Shown one piece after another: positions 8,042 to 33,094 of a DNA stretch of 37,648 bases. The stretch is taken from positions 1-37,648 of the forward strand of contig CAYVSP010000005.1 of assembly GCA_964453655.1 (NCBI GenBank). The letters are read 5' to 3'. The position numbers and the translations under genes are program-made. Numbering within the stretch: the first letter of the stretch is position 1; each line of letters begins with the position of its first letter. This stretch comes from an uncultured Candidatus Saccharibacteria bacterium (GTDB lineage Bacteria > Patescibacteriota > Saccharimonadia > Saccharimonadales > CAYVSP01). Below the pieces are notes generated by a model that saw only the letters and a list, made by a program, of their open reading frames with translations, was not told the DNA's origin and did no database searches.

Positions 8042-8158
8042 TTACCCTTGTCTCTGCTTGTGCTTCGGCTTAAATTTATTAATTACATATAGCCGCCCTT
8101 TACGGCGGACTATCTTATCATCTGGACTAATTTTCTTAACACTCGCACGCACTTTCAT
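8042..8158 (-). CDS. rpmJ: 50S ribosomal protein bL36, Cys-free form
   Basis: Manual translation [38 protein letters not shown]; SD AGGAGG; between infA and rpsM. Confidence 0.97.
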
Positions 8159-8202
8159 GCGGATCATCCTCCTACAGTACTATCGATGACACACTGCGTT
8201 AA

Positions 8203-12379: not shown

Positions 12380-12649
12380 TTACCAGCTCGACTTAGTGAC
12401 GCCTGGGATTTCTCCCTTACTTGCTCGCTCACGGAAAGAAATCCGGCTTAAACCGAACTGGCGCATATAGCCGCGCGGCCGGCCTGTTTCGGTGTCGCGG
12501 TTCTTAAGACGCGTGGGGGAAGAATTACGAGGTAAGCCATGCAGGCCTTCTTGGTCGCCGAGTCGCTTCAATTCAGCGCGTTTGGCGGCGTATTTATCAT
12601 GCATTTTTCGCCGCTTGGCATCACGATTAACGATTGATTTTTTAGCCAT
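12380..12649 (-). CDS. rpsN: 30S ribosomal protein uS14, long zinc-independent form
   Basis: [14 protein letters not shown]...[16 protein letters not shown]; 89 aa, no Cys. Confidence 0.98.
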
Positions 12650-25742: not shown

Positions 25743-28700
25743 TCAGCTTTGTTCATCTGTTTCAACACTCTCTTCATCTTCGTCTTGTGCGCCATAACCG
25801 GTTCCAACCGGAATGCGGCGACCCAGGATGACATTTTCTTTTAGACCAAATAGTTTATCAACCTTACCGCTAGTAGCAGCACTGATGAGTACTCGGGTGG
25901 TGTCCTGAAAACTGGCAGCACTCAAGAAGGAATCAGTGCTTAGGCTAGCTTTGGTAATGCCAAGCAGTAATTGATTGAACTTAGTCGGCTGCTTTTTCTC
26001 ACGCTTGAGACGTTCATTGTCCTCAATGACAGCCTGCTTACTGGCGATATCTCCCACGACGAATTCACTATCACCGGCTTCCTCAATTTGAACGCGACTG
26101 AACATCTGTCGGACAATAATTTCTAAGTGCTTATCGGCAATGTTCTGTCCCTGGCTCGCAAAAATCTTTAGGATTTCATTCATGATATAGCGCTGGGTTG
26201 CCTCCACGCCTTGCAAGCGCATCAGGTCATGAAGATTAATCGAACCGTTCGTTAAACGCTGTCCAGCTACGACGTTTTGACCATTTTTAACATACAATTG
26301 TTTATAGCCAGGTATCTCGTACTTCAATACGCTTTGTTTGGTTGGTGAGATTGCTATATGGTCTTTGTTCACCTTAATCTTGCCCGATATGGTCGCCGTC
26401 AGTGGCTCACTGCCGTCCTCATTGGCGGCAATGACATCACCGATGGCAACCTCATTGCCAGTTTTAATTTGGGGTGTGCGCCCGGCCAACTTGAGCGTAA
26501 CTTTCTCGGCCTCGTCGGCAGCTAACTGCACAAGATAATGGTCGCCATCCTCACTAACTTTTACTGTTCCGGCAATATCCGCTAGAAAAGCTTGACCTTT
26601 AGGCATCCGAACCTCAAACAGTTCCTCAACGCGTGGTAAACCAGTTGTGATATCTTCTCCGGCTACACCGCCAGAGTGAAAAGTCTTTAGTGTTAACTGC
26701 GTGCCGGGCTCGCCAATACTCTGGGCGGCAATAACGCCCACTGGGTGATGTTCAGCAACCAGCTCGCCGGTTGCCGGATCAATACCATAAGACTTGCGAG
26801 TAATTCCCCGTAAGCTAGTGGTGCTCAGAACACTCATAATACGTACACCATCAAGTTGCTTATTGGCTTCAATTTTAGCAGCAACTTCGGGAGTGATGAG
26901 TTTGCCTTTTTTAACTAGGTCACTTATATGTTCAGCTGCAAAGCGGCCGCTTAGGCGTGAGGCATAGCTAACACCTATTTCATCAGCATCTTGGCGGAAC
27001 TGCGCAAAACCAGGATCAGGCGCTTCTTCCTCAAGCGTAAACACATCCTGACTAACATCAACTAGACGGCGAGTCAGATAGCCTGAGTCGGCCGTCTTAA
27101 GGGCAGTGTCAATCATTCCCTTTCGTGCGCCTCTGGTAGCCGTAAAGTACTCAAGAGGAGTCAAGCCATATTTATAGTTAGAGCGAATCGGCAATTCGAT
27201 GGCGCGACCGGTTGCATCAGTTGTAACGCCAAGTAGTCCTACGGCCGTTTTAACTTGGCCGATATTACCACGCGCACCGGAAACAACCGCAATCGACATA
27301 GCACTATCCTCAGTAGCGAACTGCTCACTTAAGGCAGCTTGCACTCGACCATCAACACTTTGCCAGTTTTCAACCGTCAGACGGTGCCTCTCTTCTTCTG
27401 TGATGAAACCTTGGTCATACTGGGCACTTATCTCGGCAGCTCGCTTTTCGCCCTCATCGAGTAATTTATCGAGGCCTTTAATATCCTTAAAGTCACCCAT
27501 GCCCATTGATAAGCCAGACTTTGTGGCATAAGCAAAGCCTATATCCTTCAAATCGTCGGCAATTTCAGCCGTTTTAAGCTGCCCATAAGCTTGGTATACC
27601 AGTGTCATAACAGTTTGTAGTTTCTTCTTGGTCATTGCCTCATCTTGAAACGGAAAGTCTTCAGGGAAAATTTCATTGAATAGTAAGCGCCCTAGCGTAG
27701 TTTCACGTACGATACCACGGTAGGGGGCCCGAACTTTTGTCTGCAAACCAATAGTACCGTTTTCTTCGGCTACAATGGCTTCTTCCAGATTGGCAAAACC
27801 TCGAACTTTTGTCTCTTTGGCACCGGGACGCTCATATGTTAAGTAATAGCAGCCAAGCACTATATCCTGTTCAATATGAAGAATAGGTGAACCATCAGCG
27901 GGTTTAAGCAGATTTTTATTGCTGGCCATGATGTCACGTGCCTCAGCTTGAGCCTGATCGCTTAACGGCAAGTGGACGGCCATTTGGTCACCGTCAAAGT
28001 CAGCATTAAAGCCTTTGCAGACAAGCGGATGTAATTGAATGGCTTTGCCTTCAATTAACACCGGCTTGAAGGCTTGAATACTTAAGCGGTGTAAACTTGG
28101 TGCGCGGTTCAATAACACGTATTTGCCCTTAATGACTTCGTCTAAGGCATCCCAAACTGCGGTTTCGCCCATTTCGATCATCCGCGTAGCGCTACGAATA
28201 TTGTGGGCATGTTCTTCTTCTATCAGATTCCCGATGACAAATGGCTTGAAGAGCTCTAAGGCCATCATTTTAGGCAAACCGCATTGGTCAATTTTAAGCT
28301 CAGGGCCAGCTACAATAACTGAGCGGCCAGAGTAATCAACCCGCTTACCAAGCAGATTTTGGCGGAACCTGCCTTGTTTGCCCTTTAGCATATCACTCAA
28401 GCTTTTAAGCCGACGGCGTTGACCAGTGGCAGCTATGGCACGGCCGCTACGAGCACTATTGTTATCAATCAGAGCATCGACTGCTTCTTGTAGCATACGC
28501 TGTTCGTTGCGGCGAATAACCTCTGGCGCATTAAGCTCAATAAGTTTCTTCAGACGGTTGTTACGGTTAATAACACGTCGATAAAGATCGTTTAAGTCAC
28601 TTGTGGCAAAACGGCCGCCAGTTAACTGCACCATAGGCCTTAGGTCTGGTGGAATAACCGGCAATACGGACATACATAAGCTACTTGGTTTAATGCCGGC

Positions 28701-29558
28701 ACGGTGCATGCTTTCAAGCAAGCGCAGACGCTTCATGAGTTTTTTCTTGCGTTGCCCCTTCGCCTCTTCTGCCTCTTTGGTAAGCTCATCAATGAGCTTA
28801 CCAAGCTCGACTTCATCCAGCAGGGCCTTAAGAGCGGCACCGCCCATACCAACGGTAGTAATATCTTGCAAGCTATCAGGTAGGTTGCGGTAATCTGTTT
28901 CACTAATAAGGTTGAACTGATCTAATGCTTCCAGTTGTCCCTTTACTACTTCATATTCTTTGGTCAGCTCATCAAGTTCTTTAGTTTGATTTTCGGCCAA
29001 CTGCTTTACATCTGCATCTAGATCTTTAGCATCTTTTTCATGTCGCAGTTTTATTGCTTCTTTGGCAGCAGTGAATTCAGCCTCTTTGTCCGCCAGCATT
29101 TTGTCGCGCTTATCGGTATCAACTGATTTGATAATATAACTGGCAAAGTAGGCAACGCGCTCCAGATTCTTGACCGTCATGCCAAGCACTAAACCGATTG
29201 CCGATGGCGTTCCACGTAAAAACCAGATATGTGCTACTGGAGTGGCCAGATTTATATGGCCCATTCGCTCGCGGCGGACAATGCTGCGTGTTACCAGCTC
29301 TCCATTTTTATCGACTGCCGCTTCTCGTGAGCGTACGCCCTTATACTTCGCATCATGCGGATTAATGTCTTTTACCGGGCCAAAGATCCGTTCGCAGAAA
29401 AGTCCATCTCGCTCTGGTTTTTGAGTTCGATAGTTTATCGTCTCTGGCTTAGTTACTTCGCCATAGCTCCACTCCAAGATATCCTCAGGGCTGGCAACCG
29501 CCAGTCTAACAGCGTCAAAGTCGGCAATATTAGTGCCGTGATTATAGCGTCTAATCAT
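25743..29558 (-). CDS. rpoC: RNA polymerase beta' subunit
   Basis: [31 protein letters not shown]. Confidence 0.99.
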
Positions 29559-32500
29559 TATGCGGTCTCCTTTTTCTCGCTGCTTTCGTCCGCAACGACG
29601 GTTGTGGCAGGAATGTCATCTTCCAGCTCCATTACGACAAATTCGTCAGTTGTGGCGTCTTGACTAATGTCAACATCAGAAATTGGCGCCGCCGGTACCT
29701 CTACATCTGGTTGATGGGCAGCTTCATCCTTTATGTTTTCGGCCAGCACTGCCTCGGCATCAATCAACTTATCAGAAGTCATCAAATCAACTTTAAGTCC
29801 CAAGCCCTGGAGTTCCTTAACGAGCACGTTGAAACTTTCTGGTACTTTCGGTCCGACAATTTCAGTATGTTTAATGATGGATTCGTAAGCTTTAGAGCGT
29901 CCGTAGACATCATCAGACTTAATGGTCAACATTTCCTGTAAGGTGTTAGAAGCACCGTAAGCTTCCAAAGCCCACACTTCCATTTCACCAAAGCGTTGGC
30001 CACCGTTTTGGGCTTTTCCGCCTAAAGGTTGTTGAGTAACCATGGTATATGGACCAGTCGATCGGGCATGGATCTTATCAGTAACCATGTGATTGAGTTT
30101 AATCATATACATCGAGCCGACAGTGGTGAGTTCCTTAAAGGGTTGCCCATTGCGGCCATCATAAAGCTGTTGTTTACCTTCTTCAGGCAGGCCGGCCTTC
30201 TTAAGTAATTGTTGAATTTCCTCAATTGGTACACCGTCGAATGATGGGCTGGCAACTTTCATACCTAACAAGCGGGCAGCCATGCCGAGGTGGGTTTCAA
30301 ATAGCTGACCGACGTTCATGCGTGACGGCACACCTAGGGGGTTTAAAACGATGTCGACTGGCGTACCGTCTTCCATGAATGGCATATCTTCAACTGGCAG
30401 AATGCGGGCAATGACCCCTTTATTACCGTGCCGCCCGCCAAGTTTATCGCCAACAGCGATTTTACGCATTTGAGCTACAAACACCTGTATTTGCATAATA
30501 ACGCCGGCTTTAAGCTCATGGCCAGTTGCCCGGCTGAAGACTTTTACACCAACCACTTTACCGTGCTTACCATTACTCATACGCTGTGAGGTGTCTCGCA
30601 CTTCCTTAGCCTTTTCGCCAAAGATTGCTCGCAGCAATCGTTCTTCGCTGGATAGTTCCTGTTCACCCTTCGGCGTAATCTTACCGACTAGAATGTCCCC
30701 CGGATGTACTTCTGCGCCAATGCGGACAATTCCTTCTTCGTCCAAATGTCTGAGCGCTTCTTCGGAAACATTAGGAATATCACGCGTTACAATTTCCGGC
30801 CCAAGCTTGGTCTCGCGAACTTCAACCATAAAATCAACGATATGTACTGACGTCAGGGTGTCGTCTTCCACCAGTTTTCTCGAAATAATAATGGCATCTT
30901 CGAAGTTATAACCAGCCCAGGGCATGAAGGCGACAATAAGATCTTTGCCAAGGGCTAGTTCACCGTCTTCAATCGACATTCCTTCTATTAGAATATCGTC
31001 GGCTTTTACTTTGTCACCAGTGTTTACCGCGACGCGATGATTTATGCTGGTACCCTCGTTACTACGAACATAATGCAACGGCCGATAAGTAGCCTTTCTG
31101 CCCTTATACTGCACCACAACTTCGTCAGCAGCAGCCTTAAGCACTTCGCCAGCTTCCTCGGCTAAAGTAACTTGTCCACTATTACGGGCGACGGCTTCTT
31201 CCATGCCGGTACCTACAATAGGGGCGGATGGACGGATAAGTGGCACGGCTTGCCGTTGTTGATTGCTGCCCATAAGTGATCGGTACACATAATTTTTCTC
31301 AATAAACGGAATAAGGCCGGCACTGGAACCAATAATTTGACGGCGTGAGGCATCCATGTGGGTTACCTCATTGGCGTCAACTTCACCAGAAACCAAACGA
31401 CTACGGGCACTGACGCGATCATTTACAAAATAGCCTTTGTCGTCAATCTTCTCGCCAGCACTGGCAATAACAACGCTTTCTTCGCCGGCAGCGTCAAGAT
31501 ATACCACCTCGTTGGTGACTTTGGCTTTGACCGGCCAGGTGACCTGACCCTTAACCTTAGCCAAACGTTTGGCAGCCTCAGCAGTAATTTTGGCACCAGC
31601 TTTTACTATTACCTTACCTTTTTCATTCTCGAGATTAACGGCGGCAATGTGTCCGACTGCATTCTTAGCCTGCACTGCGTTTATTACCTTGCGATAGGGC
31701 GTTTCAATAAAACCGTAATCATTAATTCGAGCATAGTTTGCTAAGTTTAAGACTAGCCCAATGTTTGCGCCTTCAGGGGTTTCGACAGCGCAAATACGGC
31801 CATAATGGGTAGCGTGGGCATCACGCACCTCAAAGCCGGCCCGTTCGCGAGACAAGCCGCCAGGACCCATCGAGCTAAGACGACGCTTGTGCGCCAGCTC
31901 ACTTAACGGGTTAATCTGGTCCATGAATTGACTAAGTTGTGAACTGGCAAAGAATTCACGGACGGCCGCTACTACTGGGCGGGCATTAATAAGTTGGGCC
32001 GGTGTAACCGTCTCTATCTCGCTCATGCTCATGCGATCTTTGGTGTTTCGCTCCATTCTGAGCAGTCCAATCCGGAATTGACGCTGCACCAACTCGCCAA
32101 CCAGCTTGACGCGGCGGTTTGCTAAGGAGTCGATATCATCAGCCGGCTCCTGAGTATTGTTGAGGCGGATAATTTCAGCCACAATGGCCACCAGGTCTTC
32201 AAGGCGCATTGCCCGATTTTCGATGGTATTCTTAACATCCAGATTAAGCCGCTTGTTAATTTTGTAGCGCCCAACGCGGCTGAAGTCAAAACGCTTAAAA
32301 TTATAGAACATGTTTTCGAGCAAACTTCGAGCATTATCAACCGTCGCCAAATCACCAGGCCGCAGGCGACGATAAACCTCAATTAAAGCTTCATTGGCAC
32401 CCTTCGCGGGGTCTTTTTCGAGCGTCGCGTCAATGTAGTTGAGCTTGCCTTGGTCAACGTGAGCCAGGCGCTCGCGCACTTCCGCTTCACTTAGGCCGAG

Positions 32501-33094
32501 TGCCCGCAACAACGTTGTGACAGGAATTTTTCGCTTGCGATCAATCTTGACATATAAAGCCCCGTTAGCAGCTGTTTCAAATTCCAGCCAGGCACCCCGC
32601 CCCGGAATTACTTTAGCTCCATAAAGATTACTGCCGCCATGTTTGTCGGCAGTGAAAAATACGCCAGCTGAACGAATAAGCTGCGATACAACCACTCGTT
32701 CGGCGCCATTAATTACAAAAGTACCGCGTGATGTCATCCATGGGTAATCACCAAGGTAAATTTCCTGCTCTTTAACTTCGCCAGTAACTTTATTCGTCAG
32801 CTCAACTTTGGCTTTTAAAGGTGCTTCAAAGCTGACATTGTTTTCGCGGGCCTCAGCCTCGGCCATTTTTGGTGCTTCAAACCTATAGTCTTTAAACCGC
32901 AGGCTTAGCTTAGCAGCCGTGTAATCATCAATCGGGCTGACTTCAGCCAATAATTCACCCAGACCCTCCTCTACAAACCACTGGAAAGACCGGTTTTGGT
33001 GGTCAACCAGGTTCGGTAGGTCAAGGGCATCATCAATGTTACTAAAATAGGTACGTGTCTGTTTTTTAGGTGAGCTAACTTTAGATCGGGGCAC
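29558..33094 (-). CDS. rpoB: RNA polymerase beta subunit
   Basis: SQLSQFMDQ..HKRR, GRHGNKG, GGQRFGEME; GTG start with AAGGAG. Confidence 0.99.
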   Translation of the reverse strand: MPRSKVSSPKKQTRTYFSNIDDALDLPNLVDHQNRSFQWFVEEGLGELLAEVSPIDDYTAAKLSLRFKDYRFEAPKMAEAEARENNVSFEAPLKAKVELTNKVTGEVKEQEIYLGDYPWMTSRGTFVINGAERVVVSQLIRSAGVFFTADKHGGSNLYGAKVIPGRGAWLEFETAANGALYVKIDRKRKIPVTTLLRALGLSEAEVRERLAHVDQGKLNYIDATLEKDPAKGANEALIEVYRRLRPGDLATVDNARSLLENMFYNFKRFDFSRVGRYKINKRLNLDVKNTIENRAMRLEDLVAIVAEIIRLNNTQEPADDIDSLANRRVKLVGELVQRQFRIGLLRMERNTKDRMSMSEIETVTPAQLINARPVVAAVREFFASSQLSQFMDQINPLSELAHKRRLSSMGPGGLSRERAGFEVRDAHATHYGRICAVETPEGANIGLVLNLANYARINDYGFIETPYRKVINAVQAKNAVGHIAAVNLENEKGKVIVKAGAKITAEAAKRLAKVKGQVTWPVKAKVTNEVVYLDAAGEESVVIASAGEKIDDKGYFVNDRVSARSRLVSGEVDANEVTHMDASRRQIIGSSAGLIPFIEKNYVYRSLMGSNQQRQAVPLIRPSAPIVGTGMEEAVARNSGQVTLAEEAGEVLKAAADEVVVQYKGRKATYRPLHYVRSNEGTSINHRVAVNTGDKVKADDILIEGMSIEDGELALGKDLIVAFMPWAGYNFEDAIIISRKLVEDDTLTSVHIVDFMVEVRETKLGPEIVTRDIPNVSEEALRHLDEEGIVRIGAEVHPGDILVGKITPKGEQELSSEERLLRAIFGEKAKEVRDTSQRMSNGKHGKVVGVKVFSRATGHELKAGVIMQIQVFVAQMRKIAVGDKLGGRHGNKGVIARILPVEDMPFMEDGTPVDIVLNPLGVPSRMNVGQLFETHLGMAARLLGMKVASPSFDGVPIEEIQQLLKKAGLPEEGKQQLYDGRNGQPFKELTTVGSMYMIKLNHMVTDKIHARSTGPYTMVTQQPLGGKAQNGGQRFGEMEVWALEAYGASNTLQEMLTIKSDDVYGRSKAYESIIKHTEIVGPKVPESFNVLVKELQGLGLKVDLMTSDKLIDAEAVLAENIKDEAAHQPDVEVPAAPISDVDISQDATTDEFVVMELEDDIPATTVVADESSEKKETA

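Follow-up and report, generated by a model that had tools for sequence, protein, structure and literature searches.

Order-wide absence of the zinc-ligand cysteines from the RNA polymerase beta' subunit of the Saccharimonadales, and a probable metal-independent redesign of the transcription-translation core

The two zinc sites of the beta' subunit (RpoC) are regarded as a constant part of bacterial RNA polymerase. Of these, the N-terminal one in E. coli has been tied to functions of the RNA exit channel, such as termination and antitermination, and the second to assembly. Analysis of an rpoC gene from an uncultured Candidatus Saccharibacteria bacterium, and of its relatives, demonstrates that the loss of the ligand cysteines is common to every readable RpoC of one order, the Saccharimonadales, and is absent from the sister orders. 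Judged from sequence, this loss is probably part of an ancient and fixed redesign that made the structural zinc sites of the order's abundant transcription-translation core independent of metal. Since the loss from RpoC is order-wide and ribosomal zinc sites disappeared on the same branch, the core gene-expression machinery of these bacteria probably runs without structural zinc.

The beta' subunit and its two zinc sites

The window, by which is meant the whole stretch of 37,648 nucleotides that was analysed, carries rpoC directly downstream of rpoB, as expected for a bacterial RpoC, with the last base of the rpoB stop codon serving as the first base of the rpoC start. The features of interest are as follows.

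29558..33094, minus strand: rpoB (beta subunit), an open reading frame immediately upstream of rpoC
25743..29558, minus strand: rpoC (RNA polymerase beta' subunit), 1271 amino acids, intact and single-copy, from the open reading frame and its translation, Pfam and matches to solved chains
29283..29381, minus strand: residues 60-92, equivalent of the N-terminal zinc-binding domain, Cys-less, from alignment to 8i23_D and 7l7b_D
29358-29360, 29352-29354, 29313-29315 and 29304-29306, minus strand: P67, D69, V82 and N85, equivalents of the first-site ligands, coordinates checked by translation
27987..28007, minus strand: residues 518-524, the NADFDGD catalytic magnesium-binding motif, intact
26742..27041, minus strand: residues 840-939, the domain bracketed by the second zinc site, from alignment
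27021-27023, 26820-26822, 26799-26801 and 26790-26792, minus strand: A846, T913, T920 and S923, equivalents of the second-site ligands, coordinates checked by translation

The product is best read as a functional bacterial RNA polymerase beta' subunit. RNA_pol_Rpb1 domains 1, 2, 3 and 5 (PF04997, PF00623, PF04983 and PF04998) are all found above their curated cut-offs, domain 4 (PF05000) was not reported by Pfam at E <= 0.001, and solved beta' chains match the protein with E = 0 and identities of 45-50%. The catalytic motif, which a first-pass annotation made from the letters alone had described as intact, is present in translation and is invariant in 120 relatives, the column entropy over residues 510-530 being 0.007 bits. 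Canonical bacterial RpoC proteins (8i23_D and 7l7b_D as well as E. coli and Thermus entries) thus share with the window protein their family, domain order, catalytic motif and position after rpoB; they possess two structural zinc sites, however, whereas the window protein replaces all eight of the ligand cysteines.

HMMER alignments of the window protein to 8i23_D and 7l7b_D are free of gaps across both zinc sites. At the first, in which 28 residues of the window protein lie opposite 28 of the solved chain, P, D, V and N occupy the ligand positions and the canonical N-terminal Zn(Cys)4 site is absent. At the second, eeeapd lies opposite etdcgt and a 17-residue segment opposite svltchseygvcakcyg, such that A, T, T and S stand where the Zn(Cys)4 ligands would be. 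In E. coli numbering the ligands are presumably C70, C72, C85 and C88 at the first site and C814, C888, C895 and C898 at the second. The claim of the first-pass annotation that all eight cysteines had given way to these residues is thereby confirmed, and its placement of them was also correct: positions 29292-29375 encode residues 62-89, and position 26784 falls in residue 925. Five cysteines remain in the protein, at residues 55, 295, 426, 514 and 570. It may be added that the N-terminal Zn(Cys)4 site, while near-universal in the RpoC family, lies outside the Pfam definition of that family.

That the missing cysteines reflect a pseudogene, an assembly chimera, contamination or a misread genetic code can be dismissed for practical purposes. 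The frame of 1271 codons is intact under table 11 and includes the catalytic motif; the gene is the only rpoC matched in its genome, a 92%-complete assembly of 45 contigs; and 240 protein clusters drawn from several public sources, together with 277 of 301 species genomes (single-contig ones among them), show the same eight replacements or close variants of them.

Distribution, origin and constraint

Among the 120 closest protein clusters (78-100% identity), the nearest public relatives of which bear the submitter label Candidatus Saccharimonadales, no cysteine occurs at the first site in any (120/120), while the second site retains none in 47, one in 55 and two in 18, and three or four in no cluster. 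A further 120 clusters, gathered around a member of a different family, lack cysteine at all eight positions (120/120). In a sample of 301 genomes from the order, a Cys-less first site was found in 277 and a canonical first site in none. Specifically, a DNA pattern for the Cys-less site was present in 256 of these genomes (a reversed-pattern control gave 0), and direct reading of the 31 pattern-negative genomes with an RpoC match revealed 21 Cys-less variants and one sequence that was partial and likewise Cys-less, the other nine having no RpoC N-terminus owing to contig ends; the remaining 14 genomes had no RpoC match.

Outside the order, the picture is reversed. The canonical first-site pattern was detected in 0 of 174 own-order as compared to 107 of 127 sister-order genomes in a sample of the class, and in 0 of 23 own-order as compared to 367 of 378 other genomes in a sample of the phylum. 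When sister-order RpoCs were read directly, four cysteines were found at the first site in 20/20 and at the second in 23/23. No second Cys-less lineage was seen among the five examined of the 11 outside genomes (11/378) that lack the pattern, four of the five having no assembled RpoC N-terminus and one being cut at a contig end. Among 78 comparison loci from named genomes outside the Cys-less clade, the first site was readable in 77 and is CCCC in 76 and CSCC in one, and the second is CCCC in all 73 that could be read; in the RpoC of one Paceibacterota MAG (L019), Ser takes the place of the second ligand. Given these comparison loci, the absence of cysteine from both sites of the window protein is far from chance. 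Related genomes are non-independent samples in such counts. The suspicion of the first-pass annotation that the loss may be lineage-wide therefore stands for one order of the class, in all of its readable RpoCs, but fails for the CPR/Patescibacteria as a whole, in which the canonical first site is kept by the sister orders and by 367 of 378 further genomes of the phylum.

In a FastTree phylogeny, the 12 RpoC rows of the order form one clade with an SH-like support of 100, the sister of which comprises four rows with all eight cysteines present; the stem branch of the Cys-less clade measures 0.21 changes per site in RpoC. The best reading is that the ancestor of the whole order exchanged both Zn(Cys)4 sites for ordinary residues, and that this happened once. 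Compared with the closest Cys-containing sister clade, about one in two of residues 62-91 is changed, and across the 120 closest clusters residues 60-92 are nearly invariant, with a mean column entropy of 0.16 bits as compared to 0.61 bits for the whole protein. Since the loss, the N-terminal domain in its rebuilt form has hardly changed and is not decaying. At the second site, ligand columns 846 and 920 have entropies of 3.3 and 2.3 bits in the same clusters, and across the clade the third and fourth ligands are missing almost without exception, whereas the first and second positions drift, sometimes holding relic cysteines.

Alternative ligands and predicted folds

A domain so strongly constrained might be Cys-free without being metal-free, still holding zinc or another cation through His68, Asp69 and Asp83, and perhaps Glu79 or Glu87. 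In favour of this, both sets of 120 clusters show little or no variation in the motifs P-H-D and V-D-K-N, most members share H68, D69 and D83, which might in principle coordinate a cation, and the AlphaFold2 model is uncertain at this domain. Nevertheless, we regard such retained binding as improbable. Across the order these and the ligand-equivalent positions vary: H or N occurs at position 68; position 69, otherwise D, has E in a single genome and N in one other; P, S, Q, I and A are all seen at position 67, and N, K and R at position 85. In addition, D83 together with H or Y at position 68 is already present in Cys-containing relatives, so these residues are not new ligands. The first site has at most two conserved carboxylates, which do not suffice for a structural zinc site, and the second has no conserved residue capable of serving as a ligand. 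As to His or Asp ligands at both sites, the counter-case raised by the first-pass annotation itself, no set of at least three conserved alternative ligands was found at either.

We therefore infer that the RNA polymerase of the order binds no structural zinc. The naturally zinc-free enzyme proposed in the first-pass annotation is supported at the level of sequence by an intact single-copy gene, by order-wide loss, by a constrained domain and by this lack of conserved substitutes. In such an enzyme, the N-terminal zinc knuckles would be held by tight turns that form by themselves, Asn-Pro-His-Asp in the first and Asp-Lys-Asn-Gly in the second, and the second-site domain would fold through packing alone. 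Structure predictions were obtained for both regions. Residues 840-939, which contain no cysteine, were modelled by AlphaFold2 with pLDDT values of 87-98, and a Foldseek search of the PDB with this fragment returned beta' chains as matches, with TM-scores that are poor owing to floppy flanks, so that the search says nothing about the site itself. For residues 1-420, the model places a hairpin around D-K-N-G (strands at 81-82 and 88-89); pLDDT is 52-60 over residues 61-90, and the model is therefore no confirmation of a stable metal-free N-terminal fold.

Ribosomal proteins, a proposed zinc economy and known zinc-sparing systems

Two ribosomal protein genes in the window bear on the extent of the change.

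8042..8167, minus strand: rpmJ (ribosomal protein L36), with S, D and N at the positions of the three Cys of sister orders, and the His retained
12380..12649, minus strand: rpsN (ribosomal protein S14), an 89-aa long form with no cysteine

Firstly, L36 is Cys-less in 9/9 genomes of the order and has three Cys in 21/21 genomes of sister orders; the turn Ser-Pro-Asp-Asp in place of C-x-x-C may represent the same solution as that proposed for RpoC. Secondly, L31 is Cys-less in 9/9 own-order genomes, including a long type with 0 Cys in the genome under study, and has four Cys in 29/30 sister-order genomes. Thirdly, S14 is a long form with 0-1 Cys in 5/5 own-order cases (four loci and the gene of the window) and a short form (61-66 aa) with four Cys in 6/6 genomes of the closest sister clade, a long Cys-poor form being found again in more distant sister-order families (17/26 sister-order loci). 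L33 has 0 Cys in the genome under study, and Cys-less L33 and L32 already occur in some or all of the sister orders. L32 in particular is uninformative as a marker of the order boundary, all 23 L32-like matches (20 above the Pfam cut-off) being Cys-less in own and sister orders alike; it was not detected in the genome under study (PF01783). The loss of zinc ligands from L36, L31 and S14 at the same boundary as in RpoC is new here, and all three became zinc-ligand-free on the same stem branch while rare zinc-finger proteins kept their cysteines. Indeed, UvrA, Fpg, DnaJ, PriA, NrdR, RadA, prepilin peptidase and MsrB retain zinc fingers in this genome. A genome-wide purge of cysteine or zinc can be rejected, with cysteine making up 0.68% of 837 crude ORFs and 19 ORFs, classic zinc fingers included, carrying at least two CxxC motifs.

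As the abundant machines lost their ligands and the rare zinc fingers did not, the most likely cause would be selection to free the ribosome and RNA polymerase, as the most abundant machines, from their need for zinc, although the case for a zinc-economy motive is indirect. Alternatively, the sites may have eroded neutrally, or at slight cost, in a lineage of small populations and reduced genomes and been compensated later with no zinc saved, the coincidence with L36, L31 and S14 reflecting only a long stem. At 0.21 changes per site that branch is long, so several independent losses could have piled up on it without a common cause; the second-site columns drift freely and keep relic cysteines, Cys-less forms of L33, L32 and S14 are found in sister orders too, and no difference in ZnuA separates the order from its sisters. 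Sister orders with equally small genomes nonetheless keep these sites (first 20/20, second 23/23, L36 21/21, L31 29/30), so that loss is rare per lineage; on a single branch, five sites came to differ from those of the closest sister clade; abundant machines were hit and rare zinc-finger proteins spared; and the rebuilt N-terminal domain is frozen. Erosion is thus considered unlikely, though clearly less so than retained metal binding.

Other features of the class do not discriminate. The ZnuA family (PF01297) was found in 4 of 61 class genomes, 1/16 in the order and 3/45 in other orders; being as rare in the one as in the other, it reveals no difference in zinc uptake and was rejected as a discriminating factor. 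Neither the omega subunit (PF01192; controls 14/14) nor Rho (PF07497; controls 9/14) was detected in any of the 61 class genomes, and, both being missing class-wide, neither explains an order-specific change. The lack of a detectable omega in the genome under study is thus a further difference from the canonical polymerase, though one common to the class.

Selective removal of zinc from such proteins has parallels elsewhere. C-plus and C-minus forms of ribosomal proteins are reportedly the subject of Makarova 2001, 'Two C or not two C'. DksA2 is a Cys-less paralogue of the RNA-polymerase-binding factor DksA. C-minus ribosomal proteins follow the principle seen here, a protein with a Cys4 or Cys3His zinc ribbon giving way to its own metal-free version, and L36, L31, L33 and S14 of the genome under study are exactly such forms. 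Elsewhere, zinc-independent (C-minus) L31, L33, L36 and S14 are alternative paralogues controlled by Zur (PMC5912738, PMC13343924). That switch relies upon coexisting pairs, whereas this genome contains none, with one match each for L36, S14, L33 and L31 and one rpoC, and extends the change to RNA polymerase; with one copy of each ribosomal protein, the zinc-ligand-free state is therefore constitutive and involves no paralogue switch. A third paper presents FolE_IB as a zinc-sparing replacement for the zinc enzyme FolE_IA, and states that RpoC binds zinc firmly by four cysteines and that zinc shortage in Cupriavidus metallidurans leads to RpoC misfolding and inclusion bodies (PMC12632275). FolE_IB and DksA2 resemble the window RpoC in being zinc-independent versions of a zinc-dependent protein of central metabolism or transcription; they differ in being extra paralogues induced under zinc shortage, while here the sole and essential rpoC has been rebuilt in place and fixed throughout an order. 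The order would thus be sparing zinc constitutively, where other bacteria do so with switchable paralogues.

The first-pass annotation allowed that its observation might already have been noted; full-text literature searches on RNA polymerase or Saccharibacteria and zinc turned up no paper describing a zinc-free RNA polymerase or the loss of RpoC cysteines. We tentatively suggest, at somewhat less than even confidence, that this is the first known cellular multisubunit RNA polymerase naturally without structural zinc, and that it forms one part of a concerted adaptive process which stripped Zn(Cys)4 sites from the entire abundant transcription-translation core (both beta' sites, L36, L31 and S14, with L33 and L32 Cys-less already) by way of self-folding Pro/Asp and Asn-Gly turns, which would let epibionts grow on very little zinc.

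A large and species-rich order living without either beta' zinc site offers a natural answer to the question of what the zinc is needed for, and its N-terminal domain provides a ready-made metal-free design to test in model enzymes. If cultured Saccharibacteria fall within this order, as we assume that their GTDB placement may allow, the zinc question would be directly testable at the bench. These data suggest that a whole lineage has constitutively reduced how much zinc its ribosomes and polymerase require.

The rpoC gene and its two zinc sites

On the minus strand of the window, rpoB and rpoC are followed by a long ribosomal-protein operon.

29558-33094, minus strand: rpoB
25743-29558, minus strand: rpoC, 1271 residues, uninterrupted under table 11
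28923-29126, minus strand: coiled-coil insertion of RpoC (residues 145-212)

The rpoB stop and rpoC start overlap by one base at position 29558, which makes translational coupling of the two genes probable. The rpoC product matches Pfam RNA_pol_Rpb1 domains 1, 2, 3 and 5, and its gene is single in the genome holding the window (759 kb, 92% complete). In HMMER alignments to the solved beta' chains 8i23_D and 7l7b_D, both zinc sites are free of gaps; P67, D69, V82 and N85 stand in for the ligand cysteines of the N-terminal first site, and A846, T913, T920 and S923 for those of the second, coordinates that were checked by translation. Five cysteines are left in the protein, none of them at a ligand position, and the catalytic NADFDGD is intact. 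The alignment and translation thus bear out the first-pass annotation, which had reported the loss of all eight zinc-ligand cysteines and an intact NADFDGD and whose coordinates proved correct; its motif strings and residue numbers are labels after E. coli. Its further proposal, a zinc-free RNA polymerase, is supported at the sequence level. The protein is RpoC by homology, but it fails both near-universal zinc-site features of canonical RpoC.

With regard to overall fold, actinobacterial beta' chains are the top structural matches of the N-terminal model (TMq 0.68), and the insertion of approximately 65 residues, predicted to form two long helices (pLDDT 96-98), is missing from the Clostridial beta' chains compared.

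Extent and origin of the cysteine loss

The order to which the window belongs, Saccharimonadales, was sampled as 301 species genomes from 71 families, 287 of which contain an RpoC match. A DNA-level search for the cysteine-less motif K-D-I-x-P-H-D-x-K-x-K-G succeeded in 256 of the 301 (reversed-pattern control, 0), and all 31 genomes with RpoC and no motif match were read: 21 carry cysteine-less variants ([P/S/Q/I/A]-[D/E/N]-[V/R/I]-[N/K/R]), one is cut and cysteine-less where legible, and in nine the N-terminus is lost to a contig end. Conversely, the canonical two-knuckle pattern was found in 0/174 genomes of the order versus 107/127 from other orders of the class Saccharimonadia. Three genomes flagged as unpublished (G033, G262 and G280) enter the 301-genome counts, and G280 also the count of 174; without them the values are 253/298 and 0/173, and no other claim depends on them.

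Among the 120 closest public protein clusters (78-100% identity), the first site is invariably P-D-[V/I/L]-[N/K/R], while the second retains no cysteine in 47, one in 55 and two in 18. These relics are confined to the first two ligand positions, the last two always being S/P/G/A/T/N/H and S/A. In a second set of 120 clusters, centred on a protein from the family with the most species sampled, all eight positions are free of cysteine, and more than two second-site cysteines were not seen in any RpoC read from the order. Two side observations concern individual members. Family f53 RpoCs (L086/L087 in G170; L315/L317 in G194) are approximately 1390-1410 residues long, 50-55% identical to that of the window and on a long branch (0.93), with a first site that is nonetheless cysteine-less; and G238 (76% complete) holds two differing cysteine-less N-terminal motif copies on contigs C32 and C40, which may reflect either a bin of mixed strains or duplication.

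Within the class, 20 genomes from other orders lack the canonical pattern; the five of these that were searched comprise one with four cysteines and a variant knuckle, three whose RpoC is cut at the N-terminus, and one without an RpoC match. Five of the 11 corresponding phylum genomes were likewise searched: in four the N-terminus is not assembled, and in the fifth RpoC is truncated by the end of its contig. Sister-order RpoCs read directly carry four cysteines at the first site in 20/20 and at the second in 23/23. In a tree of 44 RpoCs (FastTree alone, midpoint root), the 12 rows from the order form one clade with SH-like support of 100, and its sister is four rows (families f72, f73 and f77) that keep all eight cysteines. 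On this topology the loss happened once, long ago, and encompasses the whole order. The suggestion that the loss is lineage-wide therefore holds for Saccharimonadales, where a cysteine-less first site is seen in 277 of the 301 genomes and a canonical one in none, and does not extend to CPR as a whole: across Patescibacteriota the canonical pattern occurs in 0/23 genomes of the order versus 367/378 others.

Farther afield, the comparison took in 78 RpoC loci of named genomes that lie outside the cysteine-less clade and span many phyla. The first site, legible in 77, is CCCC in 76 and CSCC in one, and the second is CCCC in all 73 in which it is legible. Only two loci are without all eight cysteines, and both come from soil MAGs, one labelled Patescibacteria group (73% identity) and the other Candidatus Saccharimonadales (68%). 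The CSCC locus, L019 from a Candidatus Paceibacterota MAG, has Ser as its second first-site ligand and Ala for the next Gly (C-D-S-A-K-Y) and keeps the remaining seven ligand cysteines; it may represent an independent early step toward the same kind of loss. A full-text literature search, with most subscription journals outside its reach, found no cysteine-less or zinc-free RpoC described for Saccharibacteria or any bacterium.

Character of the replaced sites

Across the 120 closest clusters, residues 60-92 average 0.16 bits of entropy per column versus 0.61 for the whole protein, placing them within the most conserved 17% of 33-residue windows, and neither P67 nor D69 varies. Roughly half of the positions from 62 to 91 nevertheless differ from those of the closest cysteine-containing sisters; this combination shows that the N-terminal domain was remodelled on the stem branch and thereafter frozen. 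The second-site region (840-930) is of below-average conservation (1.0 bit), with ligand columns 846 and 920 nearly free (3.3 and 2.3 bits). Despite these variable columns, AlphaFold2 gives pLDDT 87-98 over residues 840-939. Its N-terminal model reaches only 52-60 at residues 61-90, is confident on either side, and places a putative short hairpin around D83-K84-N85-G86.

Zinc could in principle be held by other residues. Alternative metal ligands are unlikely, however, because order-wide conservation at the first site is limited to Asp69 (itself E in one genome and N in another) and the ancestral Asp83, His68 is replaceable by Asn, and no conserved residue capable of binding metal was found at the second site in sequences from the order. 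Metal-held knuckles have probably been swapped for self-folding turns. The first knuckle is now Asn-Pro-His-Asp, and Asp-Lys-Asn-Gly occupies the second; both Pro-x-Asp and Asn-Gly have a well-established propensity for tight beta-turns. The same exchange would apply to ribosomal protein L36 of the order, in which C-x-x-C has become Ser-Pro-Asp-Asp and the third cysteine Asn.

Zinc sites of the ribosome and a proposed wider zinc economy

8042-8167, minus strand: L36 gene with S-P-D-D and N for C-x-x-C and C (loci compared across both groups, L123-L152)
12380-12649, minus strand: S14 gene, zero cysteines
G000:C23:4552-4782 (genome holding the window), plus strand: L31 gene (loci compared across both groups, L233-L271)

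Table. Zinc ligands of ribosomal proteins in Saccharimonadales and its sister orders
L36: own order, cysteine-less 9/9; sister orders, three Cys + His 21/21
L31: own order, long cysteine-less type 9/9; sister orders, four Cys 29/30
S14: own order, 89-aa form with 0-1 Cys 5/5; closest sister clade, 61-66-aa form with four Cys 6/6; other sister families, 17 long and 9 short among 26
L33: own order, cysteine-less 8/9; sister orders, mixed
L32: cysteine-less in both

The boundary of L36 loss coincides exactly with that of RpoC (9/9 genomes of the order versus 0/21 of sister orders). L31 sequences of the two groups differ along their whole length, so that the change looks like a replacement of type and not point changes. 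L36, S14, L33 and L31 are each single in the genome holding the window, where L32 was not detected with PF01783. Among other sequences, a relic cysteine in an N-R-C motif is kept by the four other S14s read from the order and by sister-order long forms; one L33 of the order (L209, G031) has three cysteines, two in C-E-N-C and one further on, versus eight cysteine-less ones; and four sister-order genomes (G303, G323, G326 and G329) have two L33 matches each.

Cysteine zinc fingers are kept in the genome holding the window by UvrA, Fpg, DnaJ, PriA, NrdR, RadA, prepilin peptidase, MsrB and others. Compared with its closest sisters, the order has thus lost five zinc sites, each of them in a ribosomal protein or RNA polymerase, and has kept those of rare proteins. 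This pattern most likely reflects a constitutive reduction in how much zinc the most abundant machines require, although ZnuA occurrence is the same in the order and its sisters and independent losses could also have piled up on one long stem branch. The omega subunit (PF01192) was detected in 0/61 class genomes and 14/14 named controls, and the Rho RNA-binding domain (PF07497) in 0/61 and 9/14, respectively; missing class-wide, neither explains the order-specific change.

Like the zinc-independent forms of ribosomal proteins, RpoC would dispense with zinc, but it differs from them in that the change was made within the one essential copy, without a paralogue switch. Omega is reported to guide zinc insertion into RpoC (PMC12632275), and the Saccharimonadales polymerase, with omega undetectable, is apparently also without this guiding subunit. 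Such a variant enzyme is of real interest for specialists in transcription and metal homeostasis.
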